A stretch of DNA of 38,564 nucleotides from a virus. A program made the translations under genes and the position numbers. Below are positions 21,573 through 38,420 of this stretch, piece after piece (the stretch's first letter is position 1; the number at the start of each line of letters is the position of its first letter). Where the stretch lies: the UHGV virus genome UHGV-1336581. One strand, written 5' to 3'. Below the pieces are notes generated by a model. It ran no database searches and was not told the origin of the DNA. It worked only from the letters and a program-made list of their open reading frames with translations.

Positions 21573-21641
21573 ATGAAAATATTCGTTATTTCTGTGCCAT
21601 GATTACCTCGTCAAATTGAGTAGACGTTATGAGGTAAATAT

Positions 21642-21839: not shown

Positions 21840-21916
21840 TTAAATGGCTACGGGGCTATTGCCCCCAGCTATCCACCAGCAAATAAAAGTAACTTAATTC
21901 GATAGCAGGAGTTTTT

Positions 21917-22717
21917 ATGAAATTTCCAAAAACGCCCGTACAGGGGCGGGGCTTCGTTCGGCCTGAAAACCAGAATCTGCAAAATTTCGGCGAAATTATC
22001 CCGATTATTTCCGGCGTTATTGGCGGGAGTGAAACCACTATTGTTAGCGCCAGAGCGTTACATAAGGCGTTAGGTGTAGGGCGCGTTTTCCGTTCGTGGA
22101 TCAAGGGGCGCATTGAAGAATACGGGTTCACGGAAGGCGTGGATTATGAGGTTGTTGAATATTTGAGCCGACCCGATCCGGTGAGCGCAAAATCTCGCCA
22201 GCAAACCGCTCTTGAGTACATCATCACAGTGAACATGGCGAAAGAACTGGCGATGGTCGAACGTACCGAACAGGGCCGCGCCGTTCGCCAGTACTTTATC
22301 AAATGCGAGGAGGAGCTACACAAGGTTGCGCCTGTTCGTTCCGCAGCGTTACGCCGGGAACTGAAAGCCCGTATCACAGTTGCCAGCTACTTTAAGCCAA
22401 TGTGTGCCGCGCTGGAGGCGTACCGGGCTGAACTGGGTAAAAACACACTCCAGCACCACTACACCACGGAAGCGAGCATGCTGGCGCGTATCGTGCTGGG
22501 TGGCATGACTGCAAAACAGTGGGCACTGGCGAACGGCATTACAGGCGAACCACGCGACCACATGAGCACGTTGCAGCTTGAGCACCTTTCTTACCTTGAG
22601 CAGAGCAATATCACGCTGATTGAGTTAGGCCAGGACTACCACCAGCGGAAGGCTGAATTAATTCGTCTTTCGCAGCGTTGGTTAGCCCGTCGCATGGAGG
22701 AAAACAGCCATGTGTAA
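21917..22717 (+). CDS. Phage antirepressor-like DNA-binding protein (Ant/Rha/KilA-N-type N-terminal domain)
   Basis: N-terminal TIVSARALHKALGVGRVFRSWIKGRIEEYGFTEGVDYEV resembles antirepressor-type DNA-binding domains; domain assignment is tentative. Confidence 0.45.
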   Translation: MKFPKTPVQGRGFVRPENQNLQNFGEIIPIISGVIGGSETTIVSARALHKALGVGRVFRSWIKGRIEEYGFTEGVDYEVVEYLSRPDPVSAKSRQQTALEYIITVNMAKELAMVERTEQGRAVRQYFIKCEEELHKVAPVRSAALRRELKARITVASYFKPMCAALEAYRAELGKNTLQHHYTTEASMLARIVLGGMTAKQWALANGITGEPRDHMSTLQLEHLSYLEQSNITLIELGQDYHQRKAELIRLSQRWLARRMEENSHV

Positions 22718-23430
22718 CGCTCTGACCGTTACAAAAAGAGAAAGCGCCCCGTTGCCGGAGCGCCTTTGTGAACGAATAGCCTACTGCGCCATATTGCTTA
22801 CTGTCTACGAGGCAGATTATAGCGTTGTGGTCGCACAGAGTGAAGGCGCTGATCACCGTTACTACAGCACGCCAGAAATGCAGAATATTTTGCTGCAAAA
22901 TGTCGTTGATCACACTGTCCGAAAAGCAAAAAATTTTGCTGGTGGCGCGACTGATGCGATTTTGTCAGGTCGCCAGGTGCTGATCAATCTGATGTCTGAT
23001 TTCGTTCTGGATAAAACAAAGGCGACCGCAGAGGGCCGCCAGTGGGAAAGCTACATACTTGAACGCATCGCCAACAATGCCAGATTTGCGGCTGGTGGGC
23101 AATGTGTCAGCTTTGCACCAATGACTCTATGTTTAACTGAGGGTCATTATGGTGAATATGCTGGCTTGCTGGTGGGCTATTCCTGCTCTTTAACATCGCC
23201 ATGCCGCGATGTTTTCCAGGTATGCGATCCCATTTTTGTGCGCCTGTACTCTTTAAGGAATTTCTCAAGGATAAACGCACAGGGCGCGAATCTGTTTGAC
23301 TCATGCTCGTACGCTATCTTTCTGCGCTGTCTTTTCCGTGCCGGTGATGGTGTATTGGTTGATTCTTTGTTGGTCATGGCGCTGCCCTGTAAAACGATGC
23401 ACCGTAGTCCCTCACACCACGGCGCTGGTG
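22710..23430 (+). CDS. Hypothetical protein, probably disrupted (5' part of a 485-codon open frame)
   Basis: First ~150 codons look protein-like; downstream the same frame becomes Cys/Ser/Arg-rich and runs through a convergent minus-strand gene and a divergent promoter region without a stop. End coordinate is arbitrary. Confidence 0.3.
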
Positions 23431-23434
23431 ATGG

Positions 23435-23614
23435 TTACTCCTGTTCTTTGGCCTTGCGGCGCTGGCGGCGTTTGATCTCGCCTTTTGCAGCAGTAACTAA
23501 AAAACCAGCGGTACTTTCGCCAGGTTCTTTAAGTTGCTCAATATCATCCATTACTTCATGTGGGATTCTGACAGTTGTCATTTGTGATTTTGCGTTCTTT
23601 GCACCAGTTGCCAT
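23435..23614 (-). CDS. Small ribbon-helix-helix-like DNA-binding protein
   Basis: MATGAKNAKSQMTTVRIPHEVMDDIEQLKEPGESTAGFLVTAAKGEIKRRQRRKAKEQE has a beta-strand/helix pattern like CopG/Arc; divergent from the gene starting at 23802. Confidence 0.4.
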   Translation of the reverse strand: MATGAKNAKSQMTTVRIPHEVMDDIEQLKEPGESTAGFLVTAAKGEIKRRQRRKAKEQE

Positions 23615-23801
23615 TTCTGGATCTCCTAAAAATTGGTGTATGTCAGTATACGCAAAAAAAATGATAAAAAAAGGCTTGAAGTGTATTTCACCAGTAAGTA
23701 AATTAAAAAGCAAAGGTGAAATACACCTAAAAGAGCAACGCCCCGCAGTGCTCGCAACACATGCAGGGCGTCTAACCAAACCGTTAAATGAGGTAACGAT
23801 T

Positions 23802-24167
23802 ATGGCTGGAACACAGCATACTCAAACTCACCCTAAATTTATATACACCTTCCTGGCGGTGCACCGTGATTGCATGGCTGACGGTAAAAACACTGTACAC
23901 GTAGCCGCCGATACGCTGGTTGATGCCTGCAAGATGCTCAATGACATGGGCTATATCTCGGCAACATGGAAAGGGCGCGAAGAAAACACGCTGTTTATTC
24001 AGAAATGCGAAAACAATTTTATATGGCGTTTTATCGCCCTGAGTACGGCACAACCGCGCGTGATTCACATCGAGGCCACCAGCGAACAGGAAGCACGCCA
24101 GCAATCTCCTGATGGCTGCGTGATGGTATTCACTGCCCGTATTCGCCAGGAGGTGGAGCATGTGTAA
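23802..24167 (+). CDS. Hypothetical protein
   Basis: Internal ATG of the long open frame, preceded by GAGGTAACGATT (RBS-like) and a divergent AT-rich promoter region; 122 codons; stop overlaps next start. Confidence 0.5.
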   Translation: MAGTQHTQTHPKFIYTFLAVHRDCMADGKNTVHVAADTLVDACKMLNDMGYISATWKGREENTLFIQKCENNFIWRFIALSTAQPRVIHIEATSEQEARQQSPDGCVMVFTARIRQEVEHV

Positions 24168-24384
24168 TGCAACATGGCCTGATGCAGCGGTAGACACTAT
24201 CAAAACGCTGATGGATTCACTTATTGAGATTTCTGCTATCGCTGGTGTGGCGCATAAACACGCAGCCAGAGAATCAGAATGCATCTTCCATTATTTAGCA
24301 TTTGTGCAGCTAAAAGCCGATCAGGCACTGGATAAGGCCGGAAAAATTATCATGGCTGATGTGCAGGAGGTGCACTATGCATAA
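24160..24384 (+). CDS. Hypothetical small protein
   Basis: 74 codons, start overlaps upstream stop, stop overlaps downstream start. Confidence 0.45.
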   Translation: MCNATWPDAAVDTIKTLMDSLIEISAIAGVAHKHAARESECIFHYLAFVQLKADQALDKAGKIIMADVQEVHYA

Positions 24385-24742
24385 CCTGTCAATTTCTGAC
24401 CTTAACAGCATTCAGTTTGACGAGAAATTTACCGGGCAGTTGCTGGTCAATGTGGAGAACGGGCGCATAGTGCGTAATTATCACCTGCCGGATGGTGCAA
24501 TTGCCGGAAGCGTTGAAGCATTGCTGGAACTGGCGGAACGTGCGCGACTGATTAAGCCGTCAACGAGTCATCACGATGATGATCTGCATTTTACCGGACG
24601 TATGGTGAGTCACTACGAAAACGGCGTCGAGGTATCCTGCGAACGGCTGCGTGATGATTGCTGTTTCGGCACACTGCCGGAATTTATCGAGTTGCTGACC
24701 AGTTGCGGTTATCAGGTCATTCAGGGGGGTAAACATGCGTGA
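24377..24742 (+). CDS. Hypothetical protein (paralogue of the 24961 gene)
   Basis: ATG preceded by AGGAGG; N-terminus MHNLSISDLNSIQFDEKFTGQLLVNVENGRIV resembles the 24961 protein. Confidence 0.5.
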   Translation: MHNLSISDLNSIQFDEKFTGQLLVNVENGRIVRNYHLPDGAIAGSVEALLELAERARLIKPSTSHHDDDLHFTGRMVSHYENGVEVSCERLRDDCCFGTLPEFIELLTSCGYQVIQGGKHA

Positions 24743-24968
24743 TGATCGTTTTAATTCCCTGAAACGGGAATTTGATGGCGCACAGGAAGATGCAGCGGGC
24801 GCATTGTTGAGCGTTGCTGACATGATGAAAGCTGCATATTTTCTTATCAATACCAGTGGCTACAAGTCAGAGGGTGAAATGATTCTTAGTATTGCGTCAG
24901 ACTATGCGGAATATGTGGCAGAGACGCGTTACAGAAGAAAATTCACGGAGGATGTAAGCCATGCATAA
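24735..24968 (+). CDS. Hypothetical small protein
   Basis: 77 codons, overlapping stops and starts in the operon. Confidence 0.45.
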   Translation: MRDDRFNSLKREFDGAQEDAAGALLSVADMMKAAYFLINTSGYKSEGEMILSIASDYAEYVAETRYRRKFTEDVSHA

Positions 24969-25161
24969 TCATGAAGCGCATGTACCCGTAGTGCTTAATG
25001 TGCCAGATGATTTCACCGGACGCGTACTGGTTTACCTAGATAAAGGGAAAGTGAAATCACAATGCCGACTGAAAAGTAATGAGATTGTTGGTTCTCCTGA
25101 ATTTTTTTCTGAACTTTGTATTCGTGCGGAAATAAAACCGGAACTGCTGACAGGAAAATAA
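24961..25161 (+). CDS. Hypothetical small protein (paralogue of the 24377 gene N-terminus)
   Basis: MHNHEAHVPVVLNVPDDFTGRVLVYLDKGKV shows the same MHN...DxFTGxxLVxxxxGxV pattern as the 24377 protein. Confidence 0.45.
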   Translation: MHNHEAHVPVVLNVPDDFTGRVLVYLDKGKVKSQCRLKSNEIVGSPEFFSELCIRAEIKPELLTGK

Positions 25162-25165
25162 AACC

Positions 25166-25456
25166 ATGAAAAAGAAAAATTCTGGCTTTACTGCCAGCGG
25201 TCTCTCTCGGCCTGAAATCAGACACGGAGATATTTACCGCGACACCAGACGTGGGGGACGAGTGGTTATTCGTCACGTTACGCCAGGCAATATCACCTAC
25301 CGCCGTGAGGCTTACGAATATGACTGCGTAATGCCGCGCCGTCAGTTTGAGCGTGATTTTATTCTGGTTGAAAACAAACAACAGGCGGTGGCGAGACGTG
25401 CAGCCACGAATATTAAAAAAATCCGGGCAATGTTGGTTGCGGGAGGTAAGAAGTGA
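25166..25456 (+). CDS. Hypothetical small basic protein
   Basis: 96 codons; stop overlaps the start of the helicase-like gene. Confidence 0.45.
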   Translation: MKKKNSGFTASGLSRPEIRHGDIYRDTRRGGRVVIRHVTPGNITYRREAYEYDCVMPRRQFERDFILVENKQQAVARRAATNIKKIRAMLVAGGKK

Positions 25457-26865
25457 AAAACGCACCGAATTTAAAATATCAGCCGAAGGATAAATTCACC
25501 GAGGTAATCATTTTTGCCGGGACGGATGCTTACGCCCATGCTCAACACTGGATTGAAAGCGAAGGACGAAAACACGGCGATAACGTACCACCTGTTTACC
25601 TGGGGCCAAAGCAACTGGCAGACCTGGCGAATATCCGCATTGTCGACGATGAACGCCGCTTTGCGCGTGTCTATCTCGCGGGGGAGATCGAACCAATCCA
25701 GATCAATGCTATCGCTGAAAAGCTGGCGCTGGCTGGCGTACAGGAGGCGAAATTATACAAAGGTATCACCGACGGGGAGCCGGAGAACTGGCACGACTAC
25801 CTGCAACGGATCCGCGAACAGGCTGAGCGCGGGGAAATACTTACTGACGAGCAATACAGCCAGCGAAAAACCACGCTACCAATGAGCATTGGATCGGAAG
25901 GATATGATTCACAGCTTAGCTATGTAGTTAAGGGCGTGATTCCGGCTAATTCGCTATGTAGCACATACGGTGCGAGCGGTTCTTATAAGTCGTTCCTTGC
26001 GTGTTCGTGGGCGTGTCATGTTGCTACCGGTATCCCGTGGGGAGGTCGCAGGGTTGTACATGGTGCGGTGATGTATGTCGTTGGTGAGGGCGGGATCGGT
26101 GTTCCTCGTCGTATCAAGGCATGGGAACTGGTGAACAGTGAGCAGGTGAAAAATCTATACCTGGTAAATCGTCCAATTTTTCCGGCCGCACCGGGTGATG
26201 TTGATGAAATGGTTATTGCTGCCCGACAGGTTGAGCAGGAAACGGGTAAACCTGTACGCATGATTATTCTGGATACTCTGGCGCGTTGCTTTGGTGGCAG
26301 CGATGAAAATGATGCGCGGGATATGGGGGCATTTGTCCATGGATGTGACGAACTGAAACGACGTACAGGCGCTACAGTGCTGGTAATTCACCATTCCGGC
26401 AAGGATGAAACAAAGGGTGCGCGCGGTTCCAGTGCGTTTCGTGCAGCACTGGATGCAGAATACCGGATACGCCGTGAAGGTGCAGGCAGTGAAGCCCTGG
26501 TTATCGCATGTACCAAGATGAAGGATGCGGAGGAACTGAAAGAAATGGCTTGCGATTTGCGCGAGGTTGAGCTTTTCAAGGATGAGGGCGGGGAGTTAAT
26601 CACGTCGCTGGTGCTGGAGGATAAGCCCCGTCCGCCGGTTGAACTGGAGCGCATCGAGGAAGCTGGGAACAAGACGGAGAATCACGCCGCACTATGGGGT
26701 TGTATTCGTTCACGCACGCAACGCGGAGATAAATGTACTATTCCGTTGTTGCGCGATGACATGAAAAAGCTGGGGTATGAGATGAAAAACTTCCGGCGCT
26801 GGCTGTACAAGCTGGAAGGTGACGGCGTAATCGCTATTGACGGTGATGATGTGCGCCCACTGTAA
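25453..26865 (+). CDS. RecA-fold AAA ATPase, replicative helicase-like (RepA/DnaB-type)
   Basis: Walker A GASGSYKS, Walker B-like MIILDTLARCFGG, and VIHHSGKDETKGARGSSA typical of RepA/AAA_25-type helicase-ATPases of integrative elements. Confidence 0.7.
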   Translation: MKNAPNLKYQPKDKFTEVIIFAGTDAYAHAQHWIESEGRKHGDNVPPVYLGPKQLADLANIRIVDDERRFARVYLAGEIEPIQINAIAEKLALAGVQEAKLYKGITDGEPENWHDYLQRIREQAERGEILTDEQYSQRKTTLPMSIGSEGYDSQLSYVVKGVIPANSLCSTYGASGSYKSFLACSWACHVATGIPWGGRRVVHGAVMYVVGEGGIGVPRRIKAWELVNSEQVKNLYLVNRPIFPAAPGDVDEMVIAARQVEQETGKPVRMIILDTLARCFGGSDENDARDMGAFVHGCDELKRRTGATVLVIHHSGKDETKGARGSSAFRAALDAEYRIRREGAGSEALVIACTKMKDAEELKEMACDLREVELFKDEGGELITSLVLEDKPRPPVELERIEEAGNKTENHAALWGCIRSRTQRGDKCTIPLLRDDMKKLGYEMKNFRRWLYKLEGDGVIAIDGDDVRPL

Positions 26866-27266
26866 AAAGTGAAGCGTAAAAGTGAGGGGGGAAGGGAATA
26901 TTTAAAAATCATCCCTGTTTTCCTCACTTTCTCACCTGTATATAGATCAAAAAATGAGGAATTAAAAAAACATTGCAAAACAACATATTACAACAATAAA
27001 GAAAACGACTGAGGAGCAGAACAAGAATAACAAAAAGTGAGGAACAAAAGTGAGGAATGGTGAGTTAATAGAAATGAGGTAATAAAAATAACAGGTAGGT
27101 TAAAAAACATACCATGCAAGATATTAACTAAAACTTAACTATTTACCTCACTTTTGCGTATATATAAGGATTAAAAAGTGAGTGCTTAAAAATATATTTA
27201 AAATCATATTGTTATTAACTTCATAAATTCTCACTGCGCAGCAGGTGAGGAATTAAAAAATCAGGA
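26866..27266. repeat. AT-rich iteron region (many copies of AGTGAGG / TGAGGAA in both orientations); candidate replication origin
   Basis: Repeated AAAGTGAGG(G/A/T), GGTGAGGAATT, AATGAGGAATT, and inverted CCTCACTTT within about 400 bp directly downstream of the helicase-like gene. Confidence 0.4.
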
Positions 27267-27917
27267 ATGTTAAAAATGAAAACAGAACGTTACATACCTC
27301 AGGGTATGACTTACATAGAGCGTGAAGAGCTGAAAAGTTTTGCGACATCATGTGGACTATGCGGCGATATTCACCGCTTTACCAGAACTCTGATCATGAT
27401 TGCGCACTGGATGCGACAGGGACAGAGCGTAAGTTTTACAGAATATGCCGGGCGGTGGTTGTGGCCACGAATAATACGCCGATGATTTTTACCGAACACG
27501 CCGGAAGCGTTGCCCGTCGCCGTGTTATTTTCCAGTTTAACTGTCGCGTCAGTGAGGAAGATAAGGACCCCGGAAAAAGAGCGGGCGCTGCTGCTGAGGA
27601 AACGGAACAGCAAAGAGGCACTGGAGGTAAAGCTGTACGCCTTCTGTGACCACCTGAAGCGGCTAGCTGATTGCGTGGGAATGCTGGTGGATTATGCCGG
27701 TAAGGTTGCTGCGCCAAATACTCAGATGGATGCTTTATTCTGCGGCATGGTCGGCGAACTGACTAACCTACGCGTCATGGCGCAGCGGGCAGAAGTAGAG
27801 GCAGAATTGCTTGACGTTATCCGCAACGATCCGGATTTTAACGAACAGGCAAAAAACCGCAGAGCGGGTGGAATCTGGACACGCTTAAATCCTTTACTCG
27901 TGGTGTGTCTGCCGTAA
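27267..27917 (+). pseudogene. Decayed P4-alpha/D5-type primase-helicase C-terminal remnant (fragments in three frames)
   Basis: Three overlapping partial ORFs in different frames; one carries VVVATNNTPMIFTEHAGSVARRRVIFQFN, resembling the conserved C-terminal motif of D5/P4-alpha helicases. Tentative. Confidence 0.35.
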
Positions 27918-28304
27918 GCAAGCAGACTGCAAACATTCTCGATTATCTGATGAACAGATTCTCACCGGTTAAACCACTGGCATCTGATGATGTTCAGGCA
28001 TTCGGTAGGTTCGAGCGCAGCAGTCAGGAAAATGCTGCTGTCGATGTACAGCGGAAAGTAGCAGGAACTGTCTGATGCATTACTACGGGCTCCTGGACTC
28101 GATATGGAGCAGCTGAAACGTCTCGCATTTTCACGAATCATGTCTGAGAACGGGCAGGTTATTAGTGCAGTTGCCGCTCTTAAAACATGACTTAGCTTGA
28201 GAACGAATCAACAAGTTAGAGAAAAATCACCCCTAACAGCTTAAAATTTACATAAAAAGACTTTGACTTCTTATAATTGCTGCTATTATCAGCATAAGAA
28301 AAAT

Positions 28305-28334
28305 AAAACCTCGCCAGACAGCGGGGTTTTTCTG
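28305..28334 (+). terminator. Rho-independent terminator
   Basis: AAAACCTCGC-CAGACA-GCGGGGTTTT hairpin (10-bp stem, one mismatch) followed by a T run. Confidence 0.5.
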
Positions 28335-28408
28335 TCTAAAAAGAACTATAAAAACAACATGTAGTGTCGAAGCATTGACGCAAGCACTACATTTAGCGGA
28401 GTACTAAC

Positions 28409-28633
28409 ATGGCTGAAATCAATTACGAAAAAATTCTCTTGGAAACGGGACTTGTGGCATCAAATACTTCAGGTATCCAGTTCCCACAACAATTTGGCGC
28501 AATGAGCCATGAGTTCGGCGGCTTAAGCGGTGTTGCAAGTTTTTCTCATCAACATGAGATGACTAAGCTTAAGTGTTCTACCAGAACAACTGGCTACTCA
28601 ACTTTGCATGTAAGCACCACTACAAAAGCTTAA
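28409..28633 (+). CDS. Hypothetical small protein (upstream partner of the protease gene)
   Basis: 74 codons, 18-nt gap before the protease gene; no family recognised. Confidence 0.4.
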   Translation: MAEINYEKILLETGLVASNTSGIQFPQQFGAMSHEFGGLSGVASFSHQHEMTKLKCSTRTTGYSTLHVSTTTKA

Positions 28634-28651
28634 CAAGGACGTTACCATCCC

Positions 28652-29548
28652 ATGCCCAATCTGGCCCAAGTCTTGGAGGAAATCCAAAGCCTCCAAGACG
28701 ATTCTCGCTTTGATATTGTCCGCCGTAAATACATAAAAGCTTTGAGCGACAGTACTGATAGAAACGTAATATGTTACTACACAGACTTTTTACATAACGG
28801 TAATCATCAGCATGTCAGCATCAATGATGATGACAAAAATGGTTTCATGGCTGTTGTTAACGGAATGGATAGAACGAAAGGCTTAGACCTTTTCTTGCAT
28901 ACCCCTGGTGGTTCTATAACTGCGGCTGAGTCTCTGGTTTACTACCTTAAAAAGCTTTTTAATGGTGATATTCGGGCCATTGTTCCTCAAATGAGCATGT
29001 CTGCAGGAACAATGATTGCGTGTGCCTGCAAAGAAATTGTAATGGGGCATCATTCAAGTATCGGACCTTTTGATCCTCATATCTTTGGTGGTCTTTCAGC
29101 TTATGGTATTTTGGAAGAGTTAAAAAATGCTATTGATAGCATTCAAAAAGAACCTTCCAGCCTCCCGATTTGGCAAACAATCATCTCGCGCTACCCACCT
29201 ACCATTTTTGATACAGCTAGCAAAGCTATTCAGCTTGCCGATGATTTGGTTACTGAATGGTTAAAAAATGGAATGCTTAAAGATTTACCTGAACCTCGGC
29301 GTAGCGAACTCGCCACTGCGATTGTCAAAAGCTTAAACAATCGTACGGATACGAAGGATCATTCTCGGCATATCCACGCAGAGAGAGCCATTGAATTAGG
29401 TTTGCGGATCACTCAGCTTGAAGACCATCCCCAGTTTCAGGACGCAGTTCTTACAGTACATCACTGTTGTACACAAACCCTTTTCAACACTCCTACAGTT
29501 AAGCTTATTGAAGGCTCTAATAACCAATCCTTTATTCGGCATATCTAA
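28652..29548 (+). CDS. SDH-family / ClpP-SppA-like Clp-fold serine protease
   Basis: [20 protein letters not shown] and [19 protein letters not shown] resemble the catalytic-serine region of ClpP/S49-type peptidases. Confidence 0.6.
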
Positions 29549-29866
29549 AAGTTTGGGGGTACTTAAGCGCCCCCTTCTCGATTATGCGTAAAATAATATT
29601 AATAATTAATCACTTACATAGTGCAAGCCATGTCATGTATGAATCGAAAAACTGAAACTCATTGTTAACTTAGATTATCATCGGTACTTTCGATAAAGTT
29701 ATCCGGGGTCATCATAACTCTTTATGTGAAGTATCCCCAATATAACCTCATAATTTAACTTATTGTAGTGTATGTATTTTTATTATTTAAATATCAATTG
29801 TTTTGTTGAGATGCAAGCGGCTCGCCAAAACCGTTTTGATATTTATTGCCCGGTTAGATCGGCTTT

Positions 29867-30180
29867 CTAGGACAACAGATCACGTACCCGGTTTGCCGTC
29901 CAGTCCGGGATATGCTCAATGACGTAACGCAACCATTTTTCTGGCTCCTCCTTGTTCAGACGGCACGTGCCGATCAGCAAGTACAGCACCGCAGTATGTT
30001 CGCCACCGCTGTTGGAACCTGCGAACAACCAGTTTTTCCGGCCCACTGCCACACCACGTTAGGCGTTTTCGGCGATGTTTTTGTCGATTTCCACCCAGCC
30101 ATTATTGCAGTATACGTTCAGCGCATCTATATGAATGCATCCCGTTTCGTAGTTTTGACGTTGATGGTAGATGAAAGTAC
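29867..30180 (-). mobile_element. IS66-family transposase 3' remnant (frameshifted C-terminal ~100 codons only)
   Basis: Minus-strand translation gives ...ALNVYCNNGWVEIDKNIAENA and, after a frameshift, VGRKNWLFAGSNSGGEHTAVLYLLIGTCRLNKEEPEKWLRYV, matching the conserved IS66 TnpC C-terminus; no N-terminal transposase sequence. Confidence 0.6.
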
Positions 30181-30749
30181 CGGGCATGAAACAATCAGTA
30201 AAAACGATGGGGCAAAGCATGACTAAGCTGACCATTAACAGAAAACCGAAAGGCATTTACGGCACGCCGCAGAAAACGACGCAGGCGGCACAGGAGCAGG
30301 ATAAAACCCCATCGGCGCATAAAGTGATGCTCGGTAACCAGAAAGCGCAGCAGAAGCTCACAGGGGCGACATCGTGGCGGCATATGACCAAACGCCAGCG
30401 CAAAAATCGCAGGCGCGTTAACCGCCTTACTGAGTTGTGGCCTGAATTATTCAACCGGGAAGCACCGAAGCCGCTTAAGGTGGGAATATTTGACGACCTG
30501 ATGCAGAATCTCGCCGTCAGGGGGCTGGCATTCGGGCCAGGGGCATTACGTGCGACGCTGGCATCTTATGCGCAGTGTCCGCGCTATTACCGCGCCTTAA
30601 TGGCTGGTGGGGTACGCTACGACCTGAAAGGCCAGCCGTGCGGCGAGGTGACACCACAGGAACAACAGGACGCAGAAACGCGGCTGGTGGCGCTGAATGA
30701 GAAGCGCAAACGTCAGCGCCGGGCAGCAAAGGAGAAAACAGGCGCATGA
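30171..30749 (+). CDS. FinO/ProQ-family RNA chaperone-like protein
   Basis: WPELFNREAPKPLKVGIFDDLMQ and ALRATLASYAQCPRYYRALMAGGVRYDLKGQPCGEV match the ProQ/FinO domain; real start probably an internal Met, since the 5' end overlaps the IS66 remnant. Confidence 0.65.
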   Translation: MKVPGMKQSVKTMGQSMTKLTINRKPKGIYGTPQKTTQAAQEQDKTPSAHKVMLGNQKAQQKLTGATSWRHMTKRQRKNRRRVNRLTELWPELFNREAPKPLKVGIFDDLMQNLAVRGLAFGPGALRATLASYAQCPRYYRALMAGGVRYDLKGQPCGEVTPQEQQDAETRLVALNEKRKRQRRAAKEKTGA

Positions 30750-31033
30750 TTCACGACAGCAAAGCGGAAGCACTGGAAGCGCGTGGTCTGTACCGGAGAG
30801 CGGCGGCTCGGTGGGCTGAGGTCATCATGCTGGCGAATGATGACAAGGCACGGGAACAGGCGGCAAAACGTCGCGCGGAATGTATCCACAAGGCAGCACG
30901 CCCACCAGCAAGGCAGGATAATTTCGGGGAGATGCGCAAAACCATCAGCCGGGCACATGTCGGGATGGGATTACATCAGCCCAATGGTGAGGCATTCAGG
31001 AAATACCAAAAAAAGAACAATTGTAGTCAGTAA
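30746..31033 (+). CDS. PerC-like transcriptional activator family protein
   Basis: DSKAEALEARGLYRRAAARWAEVIM resembles the PerC N-terminal signature; ATGA overlap with the upstream gene. Confidence 0.5.
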   Translation: MIHDSKAEALEARGLYRRAAARWAEVIMLANDDKAREQAAKRRAECIHKAARPPARQDNFGEMRKTISRAHVGMGLHQPNGEAFRKYQKKNNCSQ

Positions 31034-31167
31034 CAGAGGATGGGATTCTCTTGGTTTTTTGTTGATGCTTTCTGAGGAAATCTACTACGTTGCTGAGCAG
31101 ATGAATATTCAATTGCATCTGGGTTCCTGATACGATTAATCTGAATATTTTCATTTGGAATAGGGAT

Positions 31168-32310
31168 ATGAATAAAACTTTAATTGCAACATTAGTCGGT
31201 ATAGTAATGTTAACCGGATGTGGGCCAGAAGAGTTAACTCCAGAACAGAAACAGGAAGTAGCGGCTCTTAAAGCTGAACTGTCGCAAACGGAAGGTGAAA
31301 TATCAGCAGCTAAGGAAGTTGACCAGCAGTTTTCTGGTGGGTTGATAAAAAATCTGACAACAGCAAGACTGGAAATATTAGGAACTAATAAAGCGCTTTT
31401 GGAACAGCGTATTAATGCTATTGAATCAGGCGCCAAAATTGATGTTGTTGTATCTGGAGTAAAACCTGATCCTGAGCTTGCGGCTTCAATTAAAACTGAA
31501 ATTGACAGCTTAGATGCAAAAATCAACGAAGCCAAAGCTGATGCTCGTCAGTATAGTGGTGGTCTGATAAAGGTACTAAAATTATCTACTGTTGCCACTG
31601 AAGAGCAGACCATGGCAATGTTGCAGCAAAAGTACCTCACAGCCAAGTATGGCCTCGCTGAAGTTAAGCTGGCATCAGTACAAGATAATGACGCAAAAAA
31701 CAGTACTGAAACGGAAGTAACAGCCAAAAATTCCCAAGAGCAACTTCCTTTACTCCCGCCAGCGGATGGTCCGTTTGGCTTAGAAGCCGGTCTTACACAG
31801 AAAAACATCGAAGATATGATCGGTGCTAAGCTCAAGCCACTACCAGACAGTGTGAATCTGTATACTTCTGATAAATTACCGAAGCAAAACGCAGATTTTG
31901 AAATGTATGGTTTGTTGATCTCCCCGAAAGCTGGTTTATGTCAAATACGGGCTTTAGGAAAAAATATTGATACTGATAGCTATGGATTGGCTCTTAAATC
32001 CAAGTTTGAAGAATTGAGTAATTCTTTAAGTTCTCTGTATGGAAAGGCTGATACTACAGACTTTTTGCTGGCTGGTTCAATTTGGAAAGATCCTCAGGAC
32101 TGGATGAGGGGGCTAAACAAAAAAGAACGCTTCTTATCTGCCACATGGAAGGGAACAAAAGAAATACCATTAAAAAACAATATTGATACTATATATATTG
32201 AGGCCAGAGCGAACAATTCCACTCAGGGATATGTCTATTTGCAGTACTCATTTGCAAATGACGAAATTTGTCAGGCAGAAATTGAAGGGGCGAAAAAAAG
32301 TTCCCTTTAA
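31168..32310 (+). CDS. Lipoprotein of unknown function
   Basis: Signal peptide with lipobox (LVGIVMLTGCG); 380 aa with internally repeated segments (QQFSGGLIKNL / RQYSGGLIKVL). Confidence 0.6.
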   Translation: MNKTLIATLVGIVMLTGCGPEELTPEQKQEVAALKAELSQTEGEISAAKEVDQQFSGGLIKNLTTARLEILGTNKALLEQRINAIESGAKIDVVVSGVKPDPELAASIKTEIDSLDAKINEAKADARQYSGGLIKVLKLSTVATEEQTMAMLQQKYLTAKYGLAEVKLASVQDNDAKNSTETEVTAKNSQEQLPLLPPADGPFGLEAGLTQKNIEDMIGAKLKPLPDSVNLYTSDKLPKQNADFEMYGLLISPKAGLCQIRALGKNIDTDSYGLALKSKFEELSNSLSSLYGKADTTDFLLAGSIWKDPQDWMRGLNKKERFLSATWKGTKEIPLKNNIDTIYIEARANNSTQGYVYLQYSFANDEICQAEIEGAKKSSL

Positions 32311-32321
32311 ACAATCCGTGC

Positions 32322-32348
32322 AAAGCCCCTTAGTAAGGGGCTTTTATA
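32322..32348 (+). terminator. Rho-independent terminator
   Basis: AAGCCCCTT-AGTA-AGGGGCTT hairpin followed by TTATATAT, just after the lipoprotein stop. Confidence 0.5.
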
Positions 32349-32374
32349 TATTAATGTTCAACGGGGGGGATTAG

Positions 32375-32698
32375 ATGAAAGATAATCTAGAAAAACTAAT
32401 TGAAAATACTTTAAAAGATATTCTATTAGCTAATGCTGCTCTAACATTCATTTTTGCAATACCAATGGCTATTATCAGTAGGTATGGGATGGGCATCACA
32501 ATCTGGTTTATAACTGTGCTCATTGCACCTGCTCTGTGTGCAGTAGGTGCATGGCTTGTATCTCGAACATCCGGCCATGCTGAGGAGTTCTTTCATCGTC
32601 GGTGGGCTAAGCGAATTTATGTTTTTTATACTCTTGCGGCTGCCGAGTTTTTGCTTGTGTACTCAATCGCGCAAATAATGAAAAATCTGATGAAATAA
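32375..32698 (+). CDS. Small inner-membrane protein
   Basis: 107 aa with two or three hydrophobic helices; GGGGG-type RBS upstream. Confidence 0.5.
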   Translation: MKDNLEKLIENTLKDILLANAALTFIFAIPMAIISRYGMGITIWFITVLIAPALCAVGAWLVSRTSGHAEEFFHRRWAKRIYVFYTLAAAEFLLVYSIAQIMKNLMK

Positions 32699-32985
32699 TT
32701 AACAAGTTATTATCATGGAGCTTGTGGCTGTTAACCTGCAGTGAGGCGACAATCGTGTATTTATAAAAACTTCCCCTTTTCACTCCCCGCTGTTTCTTCT
32801 GCTATTGCCTTTATGTTTGCATGCACCAACATCTGCCATACCTTTGCAGAAAAATCAGAGCATTCAGTGCCGAAGGTTGGTTTATTGATGCTTTTCGTTT
32901 CATTTATTGCAATTGTCTCTGGTATCATTTCAATTTGTGCAATAATTGCAATAATTGCAATTATTGTCATTCAGAAGGGATCATC

Positions 32986-33153
32986 ATGAAAAATCACGGA
33001 GTAAAGCCAGTTTTACTTTCCCGGAGGCAGATCGAAGCCCTGCAACGCATCCAGGACGAAGAGCGTCAGAAATCTGTGCTTGGTGTGGCACCGTCGATTC
33101 ATGTTATCGCTCGGCAACTGATGGATAAGGCACTTAAAGAGGTGAGACTGTGA
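32986..33153 (+). CDS. Hypothetical small protein (55 aa)
   Basis: ATG preceded by GAAGGGA; stop overlaps the next gene's start (ATGA). The longer track ORF from 32821 runs through a tandem repeat and is probably not coding upstream. Confidence 0.4.
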   Translation: MKNHGVKPVLLSRRQIEALQRIQDEERQKSVLGVAPSIHVIARQLMDKALKEVRL

Positions 33154-33422
33154 AATTAAATATCAGAGTGGATAAACGCCAGCTATGGCAGAAAAAAGAG
33201 AACAGCGAGGCATTCAGGGCGTTGCTGGTGGAAAATCTTCAGCACCGGTTCAGTGGAGAGTTGCCTGATGCTCTAGGGAAGAAACTGGAATCCCTGACGG
33301 TGGAAATTGGCGATTATGGCTTTGTTGATGTTGAAAGCACGACTGCCAACACAGAAATCGTAAAACAGGTCGTCAATGATGTAATGAAAACCACGCTTAG
33401 CCAGCCATCCTGGCGCAACTGA
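33150..33422 (+). CDS. Hypothetical protein (90 aa)
   Basis: Translationally coupled to the preceding small gene; followed by a terminator hairpin. Confidence 0.5.
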   Translation: MKLNIRVDKRQLWQKKENSEAFRALLVENLQHRFSGELPDALGKKLESLTVEIGDYGFVDVESTTANTEIVKQVVNDVMKTTLSQPSWRN

Positions 33423-33427
33423 ATCAG

Positions 33428-33452
33428 TAAGGGGCGGTTATTGCCCCTTTCC
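33428..33452 (+). terminator. Rho-independent terminator
   Basis: AAGGGGC-GGTTATT-GCCCCTTT hairpin immediately after the stop codon. Confidence 0.5.
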
Positions 33453-33504
33453 TCCATACCCACAACGCATTCCCTTTCCGCATGAAATTATTTTTTTATC
33501 GTAT

Positions 33505-34050
33505 ATGCATGAGGTGAGCTACATGTTGATGAGTAAAGCCGAATACGCCAAATACAAAGGCGTAAGCCGCCAGACAGTTTACGACTGGATCGAGAAAGGC
33601 GAAGTGATCATGTCTGGCAAAAAAATTGATGTGGATGCGACAGATCAGCGGAACAGCCCACCAGCACAGGGGAAAGACACCGTTTCTGAAATGTGGCCAG
33701 AGAGAACGCTGGAAATGACGTGGGGCGAGTTCTGGAAAGCAGTTAAGGCCAGAGACGGTAAAATCCCTGCGCCAGTAACGGACGATGACATACGGCAGCG
33801 TGTGCTGAATGCAGCCGGGGAATTAGGCTGGGAAGTGCACTTTCTTGATGATGGTGCTATCTGCCTTGAGGATGATGAAGGACAGCATTACTTTGAACAA
33901 TACAATTTGCGGGGTAATGCCTGGCTGGCAATTCATATGCTGCGTTGTGAACTATGCTATGTTGCCAGCGATTGTCCCGATGAACAGGACACATGGAGTG
34001 AGGCAGGACTAAACGCCCTGGCTGAATGGGAAAAATCAGGCCATCAATGA
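33505..34050 (+). CDS. HTH DNA-binding protein (N-terminal MerR/terminase-small-subunit-like helix-turn-helix)
   Basis: SKAEYAKYKGVSRQTVYDWIEKGEV is a classic HTH; the rest is acidic and unassigned. Confidence 0.5.
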   Translation: MHEVSYMLMSKAEYAKYKGVSRQTVYDWIEKGEVIMSGKKIDVDATDQRNSPPAQGKDTVSEMWPERTLEMTWGEFWKAVKARDGKIPAPVTDDDIRQRVLNAAGELGWEVHFLDDGAICLEDDEGQHYFEQYNLRGNAWLAIHMLRCELCYVASDCPDEQDTWSEAGLNALAEWEKSGHQ

Positions 34051-34054
34051 CCTC

Positions 34055-34330
34055 AAAAAGTGTCAAGTTGAGCAGCTTGCCAGGTTGACACTTTACACTC
34101 TGAACGCGAAAAAGTGTCAACCTTGCTGGAAGCCGCGCCATTACTGGCCTTGTACCATATTCACCACGTCAAAAAACCGAAAAAATCGCGAAAAGTGTCA
34201 AGTTGCCATGCTTAGAAATGCCAGGGATGGTTAAGTTTTGTTAAGGTTTTTCCCGAAAAAGTGTCAAGTGTGTCAATCTGCGATATTAAGATTTATTAAG
34301 GTCTTAAGCCGGAAAGTGTCAACCAGCCCC
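34055..34330. repeat. Array of at least six AAAGTGTCAA(G/C) repeats interleaved with TTAAG-type motifs (candidate binding-site array)
   Basis: Copies near 34055, 34108, 34190, 34255, 34312, plus an inverted copy (TTGACACTTT) near 34084; each later copy is followed by TTAAG(T/A)TTT...TAAGGT. Confidence 0.5.
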
Positions 34331-34443
34331 CTAAGATTTCCTAAGGTGTGATTGAACGTGCTGTAACCTTCTTGTCGCAATGTGGATGAATGACTATAGT
34401 GCTGGTAACTTTGACAGCAGAATCAGATTACTGAAGGAAATGT

Positions 34444-35028
34444 GTGATGAGTTTTTTTAATCTTTATGGGAAAGAACTATTTTCTTTTTTTATAGCGATT
34501 TTAACATGGATACTGAATAACAGATTTAAAAGCAAGGCAAAGTTATCCTATGGTTATCAGCATGGATTTACTTTTCTTCTCAATGAACCCTTACGGAATG
34601 CTAATGGTGAGGTAATATCTAATTCACAGTTGGTGTATACACGATCTATTATTCTTGTTAATGAAGGGCGAGAAAGTGCTACTAATATATCATTGGTTTT
34701 TAACTATAAGCCAATGCATATTAATTTTTGGCCTGTCCACCATTTTGAAGAAAATATTGAACAGGATGGTCGCTATATTATCAAGTTTGAAAGCCTTGCA
34801 CCTAGTGAGTCTATTCAATGTGAAATATTATCAATAAATAGAGAAGTTCCAAGTATTCTATCGATAAGATCTAAAGAGTGTGTGGCTGAGCCAGTGAATA
34901 TCGTGATGCAAAAATCGATTAGTAATATTGCCCTACGTTGCTATCAATTATTAATACTTCTTGGAACTGGCACATTAACATATTTAATTATCGTTATTCT
35001 GCAATGGTTAGTCACTAAAACGGGATAA
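34444..35028 (+). CDS. Hypothetical membrane protein (AT-rich cargo)
   Basis: 194 aa; hydrophobic helices at both ends (FFIAILTWIL; LLILLGTGTLTYLIIVILQWLV); visibly AT-rich. Confidence 0.5.
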   Translation: MMSFFNLYGKELFSFFIAILTWILNNRFKSKAKLSYGYQHGFTFLLNEPLRNANGEVISNSQLVYTRSIILVNEGRESATNISLVFNYKPMHINFWPVHHFEENIEQDGRYIIKFESLAPSESIQCEILSINREVPSILSIRSKECVAEPVNIVMQKSISNIALRCYQLLILLGTGTLTYLIIVILQWLVTKTG

Positions 35029-35294
35029 TCCATTGTATTGAACTTATTAATTGGATATGAGTGCTGATAGGAAACCTATGACCATCACCGAAGCCGATAT
35101 GCTGGAGATGATCCGCAGCATTGCCGGAATCAAACAACCAGCAAGCAAAATTAACAGGTGTTCAGCGCCTGTTTCCGTTGTGCTGCAACAGGAACGCCAC
35201 CAGCGGCGGGAAAACGAAAAGGCGTACCAATGGACGAAGCCAAACAAGTTACGGCGTTAATTAGGGATGCGGGCTGGGATAGCCCGCATTTTGC

Positions 35295-35552
35295 TCACAG
35301 CTTGTTATAAATTTTTCCAGCGAAGTCATGAACCGCCTGAGGAATATCCGACGGCGTACCTAGCATTGTCGGCGCATCGGAAACAAAGAACATGATCGCT
35401 TCTTTGATTTCTTCGAAAGATGGGGTAGGGGTAATGCGCTTGAGATTTGAAACAGCCCGTCGGAACTCCGCCGTATCCATTGGATGCCTGCTAAACCACG
35501 TTGGACTAGAAGCCCAACATTTTACTGCTTCTTTCACCTTAGTGTTCATCAT
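35295..35552 (-). CDS. Hypothetical small protein
   Basis: 85-codon minus-strand ORF with ordinary composition; no family recognised. Confidence 0.3.
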   Translation of the reverse strand: MMNTKVKEAVKCWASSPTWFSRHPMDTAEFRRAVSNLKRITPTPSFEEIKEAIMFFVSDAPTMLGTPSDIPQAVHDFAGKIYNKL

Positions 35553-36108
35553 TTTTCCTTTTGCTTATTACCATACAAAGCATGTGGAAAGAGAAGATTA
35601 ACATGGAAAATATGGGGTTGGTGAGCAAATGGTACTGGTAGCCCGTCGACATCTATCAGCATGATGATGTGAGGCCGTATAGTAAGCCAACAGCCAAGCC
35701 AAACATTAAGCCTAAGGGTAGGGCTTTTTTGTGGCTGGTGGCGTAATGCCAACATTGTTACATGATGTTTTGAGGTATTATCTGCATGTTCGTGGTGAGG
35801 AACCACCAGAACTGATGAGCTTTTGTTTATGCATGTACTGCATGAAAACTGTCCTATAAAGTGGGGGTAGGTGTGCTGAGGAGAACATTGTGAGCTACGC
35901 CAAATTAAATTGTGTCGGGGGTGAACAAGTTTCTTGATAGGTATCAGTAGGCACCTATAGTTATAGGCTTCTTCAATTTTGTGTGCACAATATTTTGTAT
36001 TGATTGGGGATAGGGTTGCACGCAAAATTAAAAAATGTATATTTATTAACGTGTATTTGATAATTTTTAAATAAAATATTTCTCTATGTTTATCATAAAA
36101 GGTTTTTT

Positions 36109-37707
36109 ATGAGCGTGGCAATAAAAACAATGACACCAGTGTCATATTCTATAAAAGTTGATGCGATTAAGAAAAGATTATCATATTTTAGTGATGTTTC
36201 TTTTTTGAGAAATTTTTATGAACACTTCCAAAAAGTAAGGGATGTCGAGGTGGGTATTGTTTCCAATTTCCCTTGGTGTTGCTATCTGGCAATGAAATGG
36301 AAGTTTTGCATGAAGGAAAAAAAGCCTGCAAAAGAAATGAGTAAAAATGATTTTATTGATATTATCAACTTAATCTATAACTTGCAACTAGAAGCATCTA
36401 ATTTAATCGTTGATGATAAAGTTATGCTAAGCCTTAGACGAATGGTGATAAATCAGTTGCTTTATCAATCAACTGATAAATTTAATGCCAATTCATTAAC
36501 AAGACAGTATATTTGGTATTGCTTGAATGATGAATCATATTATAAAGATAAGTTTTTAGAATGTACTGGTTTACATTTGGAAAGCTATTACAAAATGGCA
36601 TGTTATTTTACCGCTATTTCATGTATTAATCCTGATATAGAATCAGAGGTTATTCCATTTAAACACTTGATAATAAACTTGGTTCCGATATTTGGTCCGG
36701 AACAAGTGAAAAGATTTTTGGAATTAACATGCTTAAAAATTGATGGTGTGAGAGATTTTATTGCCCCATATAAATTGGATAAAAACATTACCGCTGAGTA
36801 TTATGAAGATACACCATTCCTCAGTAAACCAATGTTTTTAGATGGCGATGGTGTAGTGATATTATGCAAAAGAATCATGAAGTCAGGGTTTGTCAACCTA
36901 GTTCCAGAATTGTTCAAGCAGGTCTATAAGGAATCTTATAAAGAAAAATTTGGTAAGACGATGGAACTTTATATTTCTCGCTTTCTTGATAAGTACAATT
37001 ATAACTTTAAGACTGAAAGTGAGGTTAAGAAGATTTATAGTGATAATGCAATAAAAAATTGCAAGTCCGTAGATTTTGTTATTTCAGAGGGAGATTCAAT
37101 AGTTTATATTGACTCGAAGGCAATAGAGCCTGCAAAGTTCGTTAAAACATCTAATAATGCTCAGTTGCTAAAGGAAAGGTTGAATAAGAGTTTTATTAAA
37201 GGGATTTATCAAGGTCAGGAATGTGCTTTTAACTTAAATAAAATAGAGATGAGAAAACCATCTTCGAAAGATTCAATGTTAATTGTGGTGCATCGGGATC
37301 ATCATATATCAAATGCAATGCTTGTGCAGGATTTTATTAACCCTGATTTATCAACTGAGTTATCTGAAAAATATCATAGTATCCCCATTGATCTAAAAAG
37401 AATTTACTATATAACAATTGATGAGTTCGAATTATTACTTATGATGTGTAAACAGAAAGAACTATCTATTAATGAGTTTATTGATATGTGTGTGGAAAAA
37501 GATTCATTCCCTCATACTCAGAAGTCTAATCTAAGCATGCACATATATGAATTTGCACCAGAGGGTATTGATGATGATCAATTGATTGTAAAAGGAAGAG
37601 ACTTACTGATTGATGATGTTATTGAAAATATGAAAGAGAGTGCATCAAAATGGTCTGGGAAAGTTGATATGTATCTTAAAATAAAAGATTATATTTTTAA
37701 TTGGTAA
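36109..37707 (+). CDS. Large hypothetical protein (AT-rich cargo); possible PD-(D/E)xK nuclease core
   Basis: 532-codon ORF in a very AT-rich block with an AT-rich upstream region; central SVDFVISEGDSIVYIDSKAIE fits an hhhD...(D/E)xK pattern. The nuclease assignment is an inference only. Confidence 0.55.
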   Translation: MSVAIKTMTPVSYSIKVDAIKKRLSYFSDVSFLRNFYEHFQKVRDVEVGIVSNFPWCCYLAMKWKFCMKEKKPAKEMSKNDFIDIINLIYNLQLEASNLIVDDKVMLSLRRMVINQLLYQSTDKFNANSLTRQYIWYCLNDESYYKDKFLECTGLHLESYYKMACYFTAISCINPDIESEVIPFKHLIINLVPIFGPEQVKRFLELTCLKIDGVRDFIAPYKLDKNITAEYYEDTPFLSKPMFLDGDGVVILCKRIMKSGFVNLVPELFKQVYKESYKEKFGKTMELYISRFLDKYNYNFKTESEVKKIYSDNAIKNCKSVDFVISEGDSIVYIDSKAIEPAKFVKTSNNAQLLKERLNKSFIKGIYQGQECAFNLNKIEMRKPSSKDSMLIVVHRDHHISNAMLVQDFINPDLSTELSEKYHSIPIDLKRIYYITIDEFELLLMMCKQKELSINEFIDMCVEKDSFPHTQKSNLSMHIYEFAPEGIDDDQLIVKGRDLLIDDVIENMKESASKWSGKVDMYLKIKDYIFNW

Positions 37708-38398
37708 TTAAGCAAGGGTGTTATTATCAACACCCTTGCTCATAGTCTTACAATATTAAATGTTGTGTTTTTTATTTATATATTTTATTGCCCATCAAGC
37801 TATTAATTCATCTCGTTGTTTGAGATAGGTTGAGCATTTGTATTTTTTTATCAATTTTATCTGTATGAGCTTAAGCAGCTTCAATAATATCTGCGTTAAA
37901 TTACGCTTCATTCAGAGACGTGCTTGCTATTGACATGTAATCCATGTGCAACAAGATTCCTGCCATAACTTATGCGTTTCAGAGCCGAATCATGGACTGC
38001 TTTAAGTCATTTTTGTAGGGAAAACATGTTCACATGTCAGCACTGATTTGTTTCATCATATCCACTATCTCGAATTTCTGTGTCGATAGATGAATGCAGA
38101 CGGAAATATGTGAATTTTGTGCACGCTCTGCTATTAAGCGAAAACGAGCGTGGGTATATCAACTAATAATTGCCCTCATTAACATAGGTGGTGGCGGGTA
38201 TAATCTCTGTAACCCAGTTGTTCGTGACTACCTACCTCGTCAAATTTTCACACCCGCGAAATAAAAAATACTTCACGCTAGTGGTTATCCTTGGGCATCC
38301 ACCAGCCCTTCATCATTGCCAGCCTGTGAGGCTGAGGCTCGAAGAAAAAGAGTGCTAGATAGTCGATTTTTGCCTGGTTTGGGATAAGGGAAAATTTA

Positions 38399-38420
38399 TT
38401 GGGGGTACTTTTGGGGGTAT
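38399..38420 (+). repeat. TTGGGGGTACTTTTGGGGGTAT, second copy (candidate integrase arm-type site at the distal island end)
   Basis: Exact 22-mer also at 19221-19242. Confidence 0.5.

Follow-up and report, generated by a model that had tools for sequence, protein, structure and literature searches.

A conserved repeat array behind a winged-helix gene in an Escherichia coli phage satellite: a possible packaging-recognition site

Introduction

UHGV virus genome UHGV-1336581, a stretch of 38,564 nucleotides that was analysed as a whole and is hereafter called the window, carries a cluster of short repeats, AAAGTGTCAA, immediately downstream of a gene for a small helix-turn-helix (HTH) protein, and the question raised by this locus is what such a cluster does for the element that harbors it. 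A first-pass annotation had proposed that the repeats, which it placed in an island, could form an origin, a partition site or a packaging or mobilisation site, and that the adjacent HTH protein, here named HTH175, is the obvious candidate for their binder. We present an analysis of the array, of its spread among enterobacterial islands and of the protein encoded beside it. The array proves to be a conserved site at the junction between the core and the variable cargo of a satellite of the phage-inducible chromosomal island (PICI) type, and we tentatively favor a function in packaging recognition, with a role in replication as the main rival.

Architecture of the repeat array

Six exact copies of AAAGTGTCAA are present, five on the (+) strand at 34057, 34111, 34192, 34258 and 34313 and one on the (-) strand at 34085. 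A GTGTCAA heptamer at 34270-34276, abutting the fifth copy, constitutes a seventh, partial copy, and the seven together span 34057-34322. The claim of at least six copies, one inverted, within about 270 bp is thereby borne out. No further copy with at most one mismatch exists in the whole 38.5-kb window, and seven of the window's ten GTGTCAA heptamers fall inside it; exact 10-mers would be expected at 0.07 per whole window and at about 0.0005 per 270 bp. The extended consensus of the repeat is AAAAGTGTCAA, followed by GTT or CCT. The array begins 6 bp past the stop codon of the HTH gene and is composed of the following elements.

34055-34349, + strand: the conserved array in full; similarity among islands breaks off at about 34349, where variable cargo takes over
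34057-34066, + strand: repeat R1, AAAGTGTCAA; invariant in 11 distinct Escherichia arrays
34085-34094, - strand: repeat R2, the inverted copy; separated by 18 bp from R1 and by 16 bp from R3, with each of which it makes an inverted pair
34111-34120, + strand: repeat R3, exact copy; conserved in Escherichia arrays
34126-34149, + strand: GC-rich motif CTGGAAGCCGCGCCATTACTGGCC; recurs in the origin regions of other elements
34171-34194, + strand: three A-tracts (34171, 34180 and 34191) at a spacing of 9-11 bp; nearly invariant across Escherichia arrays
34192-34201, + strand: repeat R4, exact copy; start of the first 55-66-bp unit
34232-34247, + strand: TAAG-N6-TAAGG element 1, the second repeated motif type, with 10-bp phasing
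34258-34276, + strand: repeat R5 (34258-34267) and the abutting partial R5', GTGTCAA (34270-34276)
34287-34302, + strand: TAAG-N6-TAAGG element 2
34313-34322, + strand: repeat R6; the unit is absent or degenerate in islands L002, L004 and L006
34332-34347, + strand: TAAG-N6-TAAGG element 3

The final three AAAGTGTCAA copies head units of 66 and 55 bp, each of which also carries the second motif, TAAG-N6-TAAGG (34232, 34287 and 34332), in agreement with the TTAAG-rich spacers and the period of roughly 60 bp that had been described from the sequence. Elements related to TAAG-N6-TAAGG likewise come after R copies in Raoultella, Pantoea, Erwinia and Scandinavium, and the last TAAGG of element 3 is, in other islands, the ribosome-binding site of a conserved open reading frame (ORF) of 59 aa (L003/L005/L007: ...cctaaggtgtaaatcATG). 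Between the third and fourth copies lie the GC-rich segment and the three A-tracts, which, being phased, are expected to bend DNA intrinsically. Most matches to related islands stop at window position 34349.

Several simpler descriptions of the array could be set aside. A strict tandem repeat was rejected, as Tandem Repeats Finder detects just a 10-bp doublet, which leaves the repeats as a cluster of dispersed motif copies that resemble binding sites. A cluster of promoters was also rejected: TTGACA sits in every repeat, but no -10 partner and no sigma-70-like promoter are predicted in the array. Rfam gives nothing credible for a structured RNA in the array.

Conservation of the array and its neighboring gene

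All 57 repeat positions are invariant among the 11 distinct Escherichia arrays, whereas 58 of the 164 other positions vary (Fisher p = 1.4e-9). Judged from this alignment, the array is real and strongly selected, with strong purifying selection on the repeats. The module of HTH gene and array is carried by 167-170 of 5,426 complete E. coli genomes (~3%). Clusters of AAAGTGTCAA were also found downstream of HTH175 homologues (35-62% identity) in Pantoea, Raoultella, Rouxiella, Serratia, Erwinia, Buttiauxella and Scandinavium; the check for conservation in related islands that the first-pass annotation had suggested thus gave repeats in Escherichia islands and in at least seven other genera. An inverted R(+)/R(-) pair followed by direct copies with TAAG-type elements is seen in most of the related arrays examined, the Scandinavium loci L020 and L021 being without the pair. 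Where gene and array have become separated, this is explained by an insertion sequence (IS) in Erwinia (L016) or by inserted cargo in two Serratia islands (L012 and L018), and despite these insertions the R clusters are still downstream of the gene. A further element, ATATACAGTTTTATACA, accompanies the array in these Serratia and Erwinia islands (L012, ~12060-12090; L016, ~11960-11985; L018, ~14385-14410) and is absent from Escherichia arrays.

The same array stands alongside different Rep proteins and iterons, namely AAAGTGAGG with a RepA helicase in the window, GGTGAACAGT with a primase in ABU 83972 (L023), and a third type, GGTAGACAGTT with another primase, in E. ruysiae (L008). Its constancy across these types argues that the array tracks HTH175 and not Rep, co-varying with the HTH gene independently of the Rep/origin module. 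Because of this co-variation, HTH175 is indeed the best candidate for the protein that binds the array, and binding of the 10-mers by HTH175 can be strongly inferred.

HTH175, the candidate binding protein

33523-34050, + strand: HTH175 gene, encoding a 175-aa winged-helix protein, the candidate array binder

The gene start previously placed at 33505 does not hold, the conserved start being the ATG at 33523 (MLMSK...). The protein consists of an N-terminal winged HTH (wHTH) of the MerR/excisionase/TerS type, a disordered linker and a C-terminal alpha/beta domain of no known type, and the AlphaFold model, in which these three parts are seen, is confident (predicted local distance difference test score, pLDDT, 88). 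Relatives down to 35% identity occur in Citrobacter, Pantoea, Rouxiella, Raoultella, Serratia, Rahnella, Yersinia, Enterobacter, Cedecea and Scandinavium. An N-terminal segment, MLMSKAEYAxxxGVSRQTVYDW, is almost invariant in the family and includes VSRQTVYDW, the region of the recognition helix. Paralogues in Lelliottia (L019), which have in common only the N-terminal HTH, gave no further information.

HTH175 falls into the Xis/TerS/Nu1/RppC/BldC/Cox class of wHTH folds, whose members bind arrays of short repeats cooperatively. The best PHROG match is a small terminase subunit, TerS (phrog_57, Nu1-like), over residues 5-48 only, and the sole phage match is to the N-terminus of the TerS of phage phiNP. 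The nearest curated domain is the excisionase-family HTH TIGR01764; the top structural matches include Xis and RdfS, the closest folds also comprise BldC and P2 Cox, and pSK1 Par matches more weakly. One UniRef entry names a homologue 'Repressor'. A phmmer search of PDB sequences, among them RppC (6hn7), returned nothing, and Foldseek against viral structures returned just small HTH/excisionase proteins, none of them significant. With tblastn, no homologues were found on plasmids. A remote search with the C-terminal domain among 1.8 billion proteins gave only 18 matches at E <= 0.001, among them proteins that the full-length query had also found, and the domain is without detectable relatives outside the HTH175 family.

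The host island

The region is E. coli chromosomal DNA, 33000-35200 being 100% identical to strain UTAK-5. ARAGORN finds no tRNA genes in the whole window; in UTAK-5 the same island adjoins tRNA-Thr. The island, of ~19.2 kb (19220-38420), is delimited by a 23-bp direct repeat, and the array lies ~4 kb from its right end.

19220-19242, + strand: left copy of the 23-bp direct repeat, ATTGGGGGTACTTTTGGGGGTAT, putative attL; followed by the integrase gene (19274-20488)
26864-27260, no strand assigned: canonical origin-like region beside repA; DNA of 75-90% AT flanked by AAAGTGAGG iterons of both orientations
38398-38420, + strand: right copy of the 23-bp repeat, ATTGGGGGTACTTTTGGGGGTAT, putative attR

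From the left, the island encodes, in this order, the integrase (19274-20488; domains Arm-DNA-bind_3, Phage_int_M and Phage_integrase), AlpA (21642-21839), an AntA-like and an Icd-like protein, several small ORFs, DUF4222 and a RepA-type helicase (AAA_25; 25453-26865). Next come an SDH protease, a ProQ/FinO-like protein, PerC and a lipoprotein-like protein of 380 aa, and after some small ORFs the HTH gene, the array and the variable cargo. This order is collinear with that of EcCICFT073 (int, alpA, Icd-like, DUF4222, pri-rep, ori, SSB, PerC, capsid genes, rppA). The features published for Gram-negative PICIs and their origins (PMC6092414) are found here as well: a left-end integrase, att repeats, a size of ~10-20 kb, alpA, a rightward one-direction gene order, and rep followed by an origin with two iteron sets around AT-rich DNA. 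On this gene content we take the island to be a Gram-negative PICI-type (EcCI-type) phage satellite with the EcCICFT073 backbone; that the array sits in an island, as had been supposed, is thereby given a more precise meaning.

Beyond the array, the cargo (34350-38397; low-GC, 30-37%) comprises a 194-aa protein of no known type, a conserved small ORF (35051-35260) and a gene of the GapS1 family (36109-37707), which is a defence gene. Other islands carry, in the same place, a methyltransferase/DUF262/HEPN set, an AAA ATPase with DUF4435, SieB or a large protein with an RNA-binding domain. Since a canonical origin follows directly after repA, the array is a second, distinct repeat cluster, ~7 kb to the right of the Rep-adjacent origin. 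The AAAGTGAGG(AA) iterons of that origin form two sets, and their first six bases, AAAGTG, are the same as those of the array repeat.

A packaging-recognition site

The reading that we favor, tentatively and without giving it an even chance, is that the array is a pac/cosB-like packaging-recognition site bound by the adjacent HTH175. Its position is the first argument. The equivalent position in EcCICFT073 is occupied by rppA (c1503, PMC6739421; L033 15660-16094), with an exact lambda cosN 90 bp upstream and 200 bp downstream, and in islands L005 and L007 HTH175 comes directly after capsid-type genes (a DUF2213 protease/scaffold and a 345-aa protein), as does rppA in EcCICFT073. In a minimal Scandinavium island, the only genes besides int, alpA, a P4-alpha-like primase-helicase and cargo are, at the right end, the HTH gene with its repeats; since integration and replication are there covered by other genes, the HTH gene and repeats plausibly form a packaging module. 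The island yielded no further candidate for a cos or pac site. In addition, variable defence genes directly downstream are a layout that has been reported 3' of the pac sites of Staphylococcus aureus pathogenicity islands (SaPIs) and attributed to lateral transduction (PMC12829572).

Upon induction by a helper phage, HTH175 would bind the AAAGTGTCAA sites in two clusters, one (R1-R3) with the inverted pair and the other (R4-R6) with direct copies that are each paired with TAAG-N6-TAAGG, separated by a spacer of ~70 bp carrying the phased A-tracts. Binding would wrap or bend the DNA into a specific nucleoprotein complex, in which the C-terminal domain of HTH175 may recruit the helper terminase, or re-target it, to island concatemers.

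Two clusters of sites around a bent spacer are found in cosB (R3-I1-R2-R1, bound by gpNu1), in SPP1 pacL/pacR (bound by G1P) and in the hexamer clusters of P1 pac. By analogy with these systems, HTH175 would likewise be a wHTH protein of the same fold class facing several short sites, one of them inverted, beside its own gene. It differs from them in having no terL partner and no recognisable TerS oligomerisation or TerL-binding domain, and in that its array lies downstream of the gene, not upstream or inside it. With a PHROG match confined to residues 5-48 and no terL gene in the island, HTH175 does not qualify as a TerS. The closest system by position is RppA/RppC with cos1 of EcCICFT073 (Fillol-Salom et al. 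2019, PMC6739421), which has the same backbone and the same place, after PerC and capsid-type genes and before accessory genes, and which likewise pairs a small protein with an N-terminal MerR-like wHTH with a cis site immediately beside its gene. However, there is no significant sequence similarity between the two proteins (RppA, c1503, BLASTP E = 0.057 over 35 residues), the C-terminal domain of HTH175 is predicted to be alpha/beta instead of a helical coiled coil, and no lambda-type cosN or cosQ lies beside HTH175. Its site comprises seven 10-mers; in the cosB of the Rpp-dependent cos1, by contrast, repeated R elements have not been defined. Lacking homology to RppA, a PDB match and an adjacent helper cos, HTH175 cannot be placed among the Rpp proteins either. 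By eye, the cosB side of cos2 in EcCICFT073 (L033 16100-16300) contains at least two, possibly three, copies of a CCGGACAT motif, an observation that suggests that repeated elements also occur beside PICI cos sites.

Several observations weigh against a packaging site. The cosN sequences of lambda, P2 and Chi were searched for in the window and none is in the island; the segment 27400-35300 has no similarity to phage packaging or cos regions, and comparison of the array or of 27400-35300 with phage genomes gave only the short GC-rich motif and an IS66 remnant. The resemblance of HTH175 to TerS and Rpp is limited to the ~45-residue wHTH, which is equally typical of excisionases and regulators, and its C-terminal domain, predicted to be alpha/beta and with no recognisable relatives, resembles neither the helical domain through which Rpp dimerises nor the one through which TerS oligomerises. 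In the window, the genes just 5' are small ORFs of no known type and the lipoprotein-like gene, not capsid genes. Finally, the array holds a motif that is otherwise found mostly inside replication origins. Thus, of the proposal of a packaging or mobilisation site, what stands is the synteny with rppA and cos of EcCICFT073 and a weakly TerS-like N-terminus, and what is missing is a helper cos sequence.

A shared GC-rich motif and the possibility of a role in replication

The motif in question, CTGrAAGCCGCGCCAyyACTGGC, covers 24 bp at 34126-34149 and belongs to a longer segment (34126-34161), CTGGAAGCCGCGCCATTACTGGCCTTGTACCATATT. It is the basis of the main rival explanation, by which the array would be a replication-associated site, either an auxiliary origin of the iteron type or, as crr is in P4, a region needed in cis for replication; HTH175 would bind the iterons, and the GC-rich motif would supply an origin-core function that the Rep-adjacent origin lacks. 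We consider this somewhat unlikely, although the evidence on its side is varied. Matches to the 24-36-bp segment occur in the EcCICFT073 origin region, in P1-like oriR, in the P22-like gene O and in Chivirus phages (L033 12183-12206, L034 2003-2026, L035 1001-1024 and L024 2501-2535). In the last, 31 of 36 bases match, in non-coding DNA between the cos end and HTH/helicase/primase genes, flanked by TTGTAACC repeats and AT-rich DNA. In the oriR of P1-like phage-plasmids the motif lies between DnaA box/GATC repeats and 19-bp iterons upstream of repA, and in P22-like phages it is inside gene O amid GCACATGA iterons, adjoining an AT-rich region. In CFT073 it is found ~190 bp downstream of pri-rep, flanked by GGTAGAYA iterons; experiments have demonstrated that the EcCICFT073 origin region can sustain replication (PMC6092414). 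A pattern scan of IMG/VR places the motif between at least 10 different iteron families, and several of these clusters adjoin genes for Prim-Pol, DnaT-domain, or O-like plus DnaB proteins. Each island examined has at most one copy, either in the array, as in most HTH175 islands, or in the Rep-adjacent origin region, as in EcCICFT073. In its layout, the motif being surrounded by iterons of both orientations, the array mirrors such origins, and as with P4 crr its repeats are clustered several kb away from the main origin.

On the other side, the island already possesses its canonical Rep-adjacent origin (26864-27260), and the array has no strongly AT-rich unwinding region, reaching at most 70% AT per 40 nt versus 80-90% at the Rep origin. 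There is no convincing DnaA box, the sole 9-mer that resembles one (one mismatch, by eye) being outside the conserved array, and there are no GATC clusters. In Rouxiella, in Buttiauxella and in one Pantoea island, the array does not contain the motif. Nor is it specific to origins, because it also occurs near cos: in several P2-like phages it is found, as a longer palindrome, ~46 nt from cosN (P2 itself is without it), and near the P4 cos end it recurs with two mismatches, again as a longer palindrome. These cos-proximal occurrences are possibly terminators, and they neither prove nor exclude a link to packaging. HTH175 is absent from all plasmids searched, is not a member of a Rep/initiator family and resembles no known initiator, and its position after the capsid genes, in the place of rppA, would be atypical for a replication gene. 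The array repeats also differ from the Rep-adjacent iterons, whereas the crr iterons of P4 are those of its ori. Set against the iteron origins as a class, therefore, the array has the multiple repeats (seven conserved copies) but neither the AT-rich element nor a known initiator, and what survives of the earlier suggestion of an origin is the shared origin-type motif.

Two candidates connected with the motif were discarded. The motif has GAAAGCCGC...TACTG in common with the annotated primer site of phage G4, but a G4-type primase start site was rejected, since the island segment forms no stable hairpins, its folding scoring z = +0.76 versus shuffled sequences and that of G4 z = -3.9; the phage alpha3 origin, which conserves the hairpin and not the sequence, weakens it too. 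An HTH protein encoded beside the GC-rich motif in phage 37 turned out to be unrelated to HTH175. A literature search for HTH175, the repeat or the motif sequence found no paper describing them.

Operator, excision and partition functions

It is quite improbable, in our estimate, that the array is a transcriptional operator or insulator coated by HTH175 as a BldC/Cox-like regulator, controlling read-through from the rightward operon into the accessory/defence genes or the expression of the conserved downstream 59-aa ORF. Two of the closest folds, BldC and P2 Cox, belong to proteins that control transcription through binding to repeat arrays; the array occupies precisely the boundary of conserved operon and variable cargo, the final TAAGG doubles in many islands as the Shine-Dalgarno sequence of the 59-aa ORF, and the name 'Repressor' of one UniRef homologue would fit. 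But the array contains no predicted sigma-70-like promoter, in L018 there is cargo on both sides of it, and a composite site of ~300 bp with at least seven sites, A-tracts and an origin-type motif, kept across genera, is far above the typical size of an operator. In comparison with the filaments that P2 Cox, lambda Xis and BldC form on direct repeats, HTH175 has an extra C-terminal domain of ~115 residues, and the array is not at an att site or a known promoter.

Excisionase (recombination-directionality) sites or a single-protein partition centromere of the pSK1 Par kind, which the excisionase-family domain TIGR01764, the structural matches to Xis, RdfS and, more weakly, pSK1 Par, and the position of the array near the right end of the minimal Scandinavium island might suggest, are very improbable: the array is ~4 kb from the right att repeat in the window and >1 kb from the end in the other Escherichia islands examined, AlpA is already present beside int, and the partition site put forward in the first-pass annotation finds no support because there is no ParA/ParB-type partner, no partition ATPase or other partition gene in the island, and no HTH175 homologue on the plasmids searched. 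Satellites of the PICI kind are not known to persist as plasmids.

Other features of the island and the window

Just upstream of alpA (21642), in the segment 21429-21552, TACCCTGAGGGTGATTT occurs twice at a distance of 22 bp, accompanied by a 33-bp tandem repeat, TTACCATCACCCTTAGGGTAGATTTCC; these repeats are probably a regulatory region controlling island induction. In the non-coding DNA before the SDH-protease operon (28255-28340), a near-consensus promoter (TTGACT, 17 nt, TATTAT) was seen by eye, and ~20 nt past it a terminator-like hairpin, cctcgccagacagcggggttttt; this element could be a small RNA. The N-terminal ~130 residues of Rep (window 25453-25840) are common to the Reps of L008, L012, L013, L018, L023 and L033, at 47-93% identity, and span Reps that are otherwise different, of the AAA_25 helicase and the primase type; the region looks like a common docking or regulatory domain. 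To the left of the island, window positions 1-18600 belong to another mobile region, with KilA-N and DUF968 genes and a module for baseplate and tail fibres of the Mu type; a Pin-like invertase (12679-13269), a KAP NTPase (13520-15856) and a GIY-YIG protein are encoded there as well.

Implications

The module should not be classed as an Rpp system, a TerS system or a complete iteron origin, although it may work like one of them. A bolder proposal, which we regard as doubtful, is that HTH175 and its array represent a previously unrecognised class of Rpp-independent satellite DNA-recognition module in PICIs of Enterobacterales, in which the island's own wHTH protein, equipped with a new kind of C-terminal domain, would assemble on a composite site that includes a borrowed origin-core motif, the one common to EcCICFT073, P1-like and lambdoid origins. 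If this is true, assembly of HTH175 on the array could couple island replication and packaging, or switch between them, for instance by recruiting a replication or terminase factor of the helper or the host, and the 24-bp motif would be a cis element, so far undescribed, that is widespread in the origins of enterobacterial phages, plasmids and satellites and has a common host factor as its binder. The presence of the motif in several unrelated origins is, in any case, a separate lead on a common host requirement.

In the literature searched, Rpp together with a lambda-type cos is the packaging redirection that has been characterised for E. coli PICIs, and the HTH175 islands have neither. Related islands occur in at least seven other enterobacterial genera, with anti-phage defence cargo immediately 3' of the array. 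The defined pair of protein and site offers an experimental handle on the helper phages of these islands, on a possible pac-like signal of their own, and on the accumulation of defence genes next to the array.

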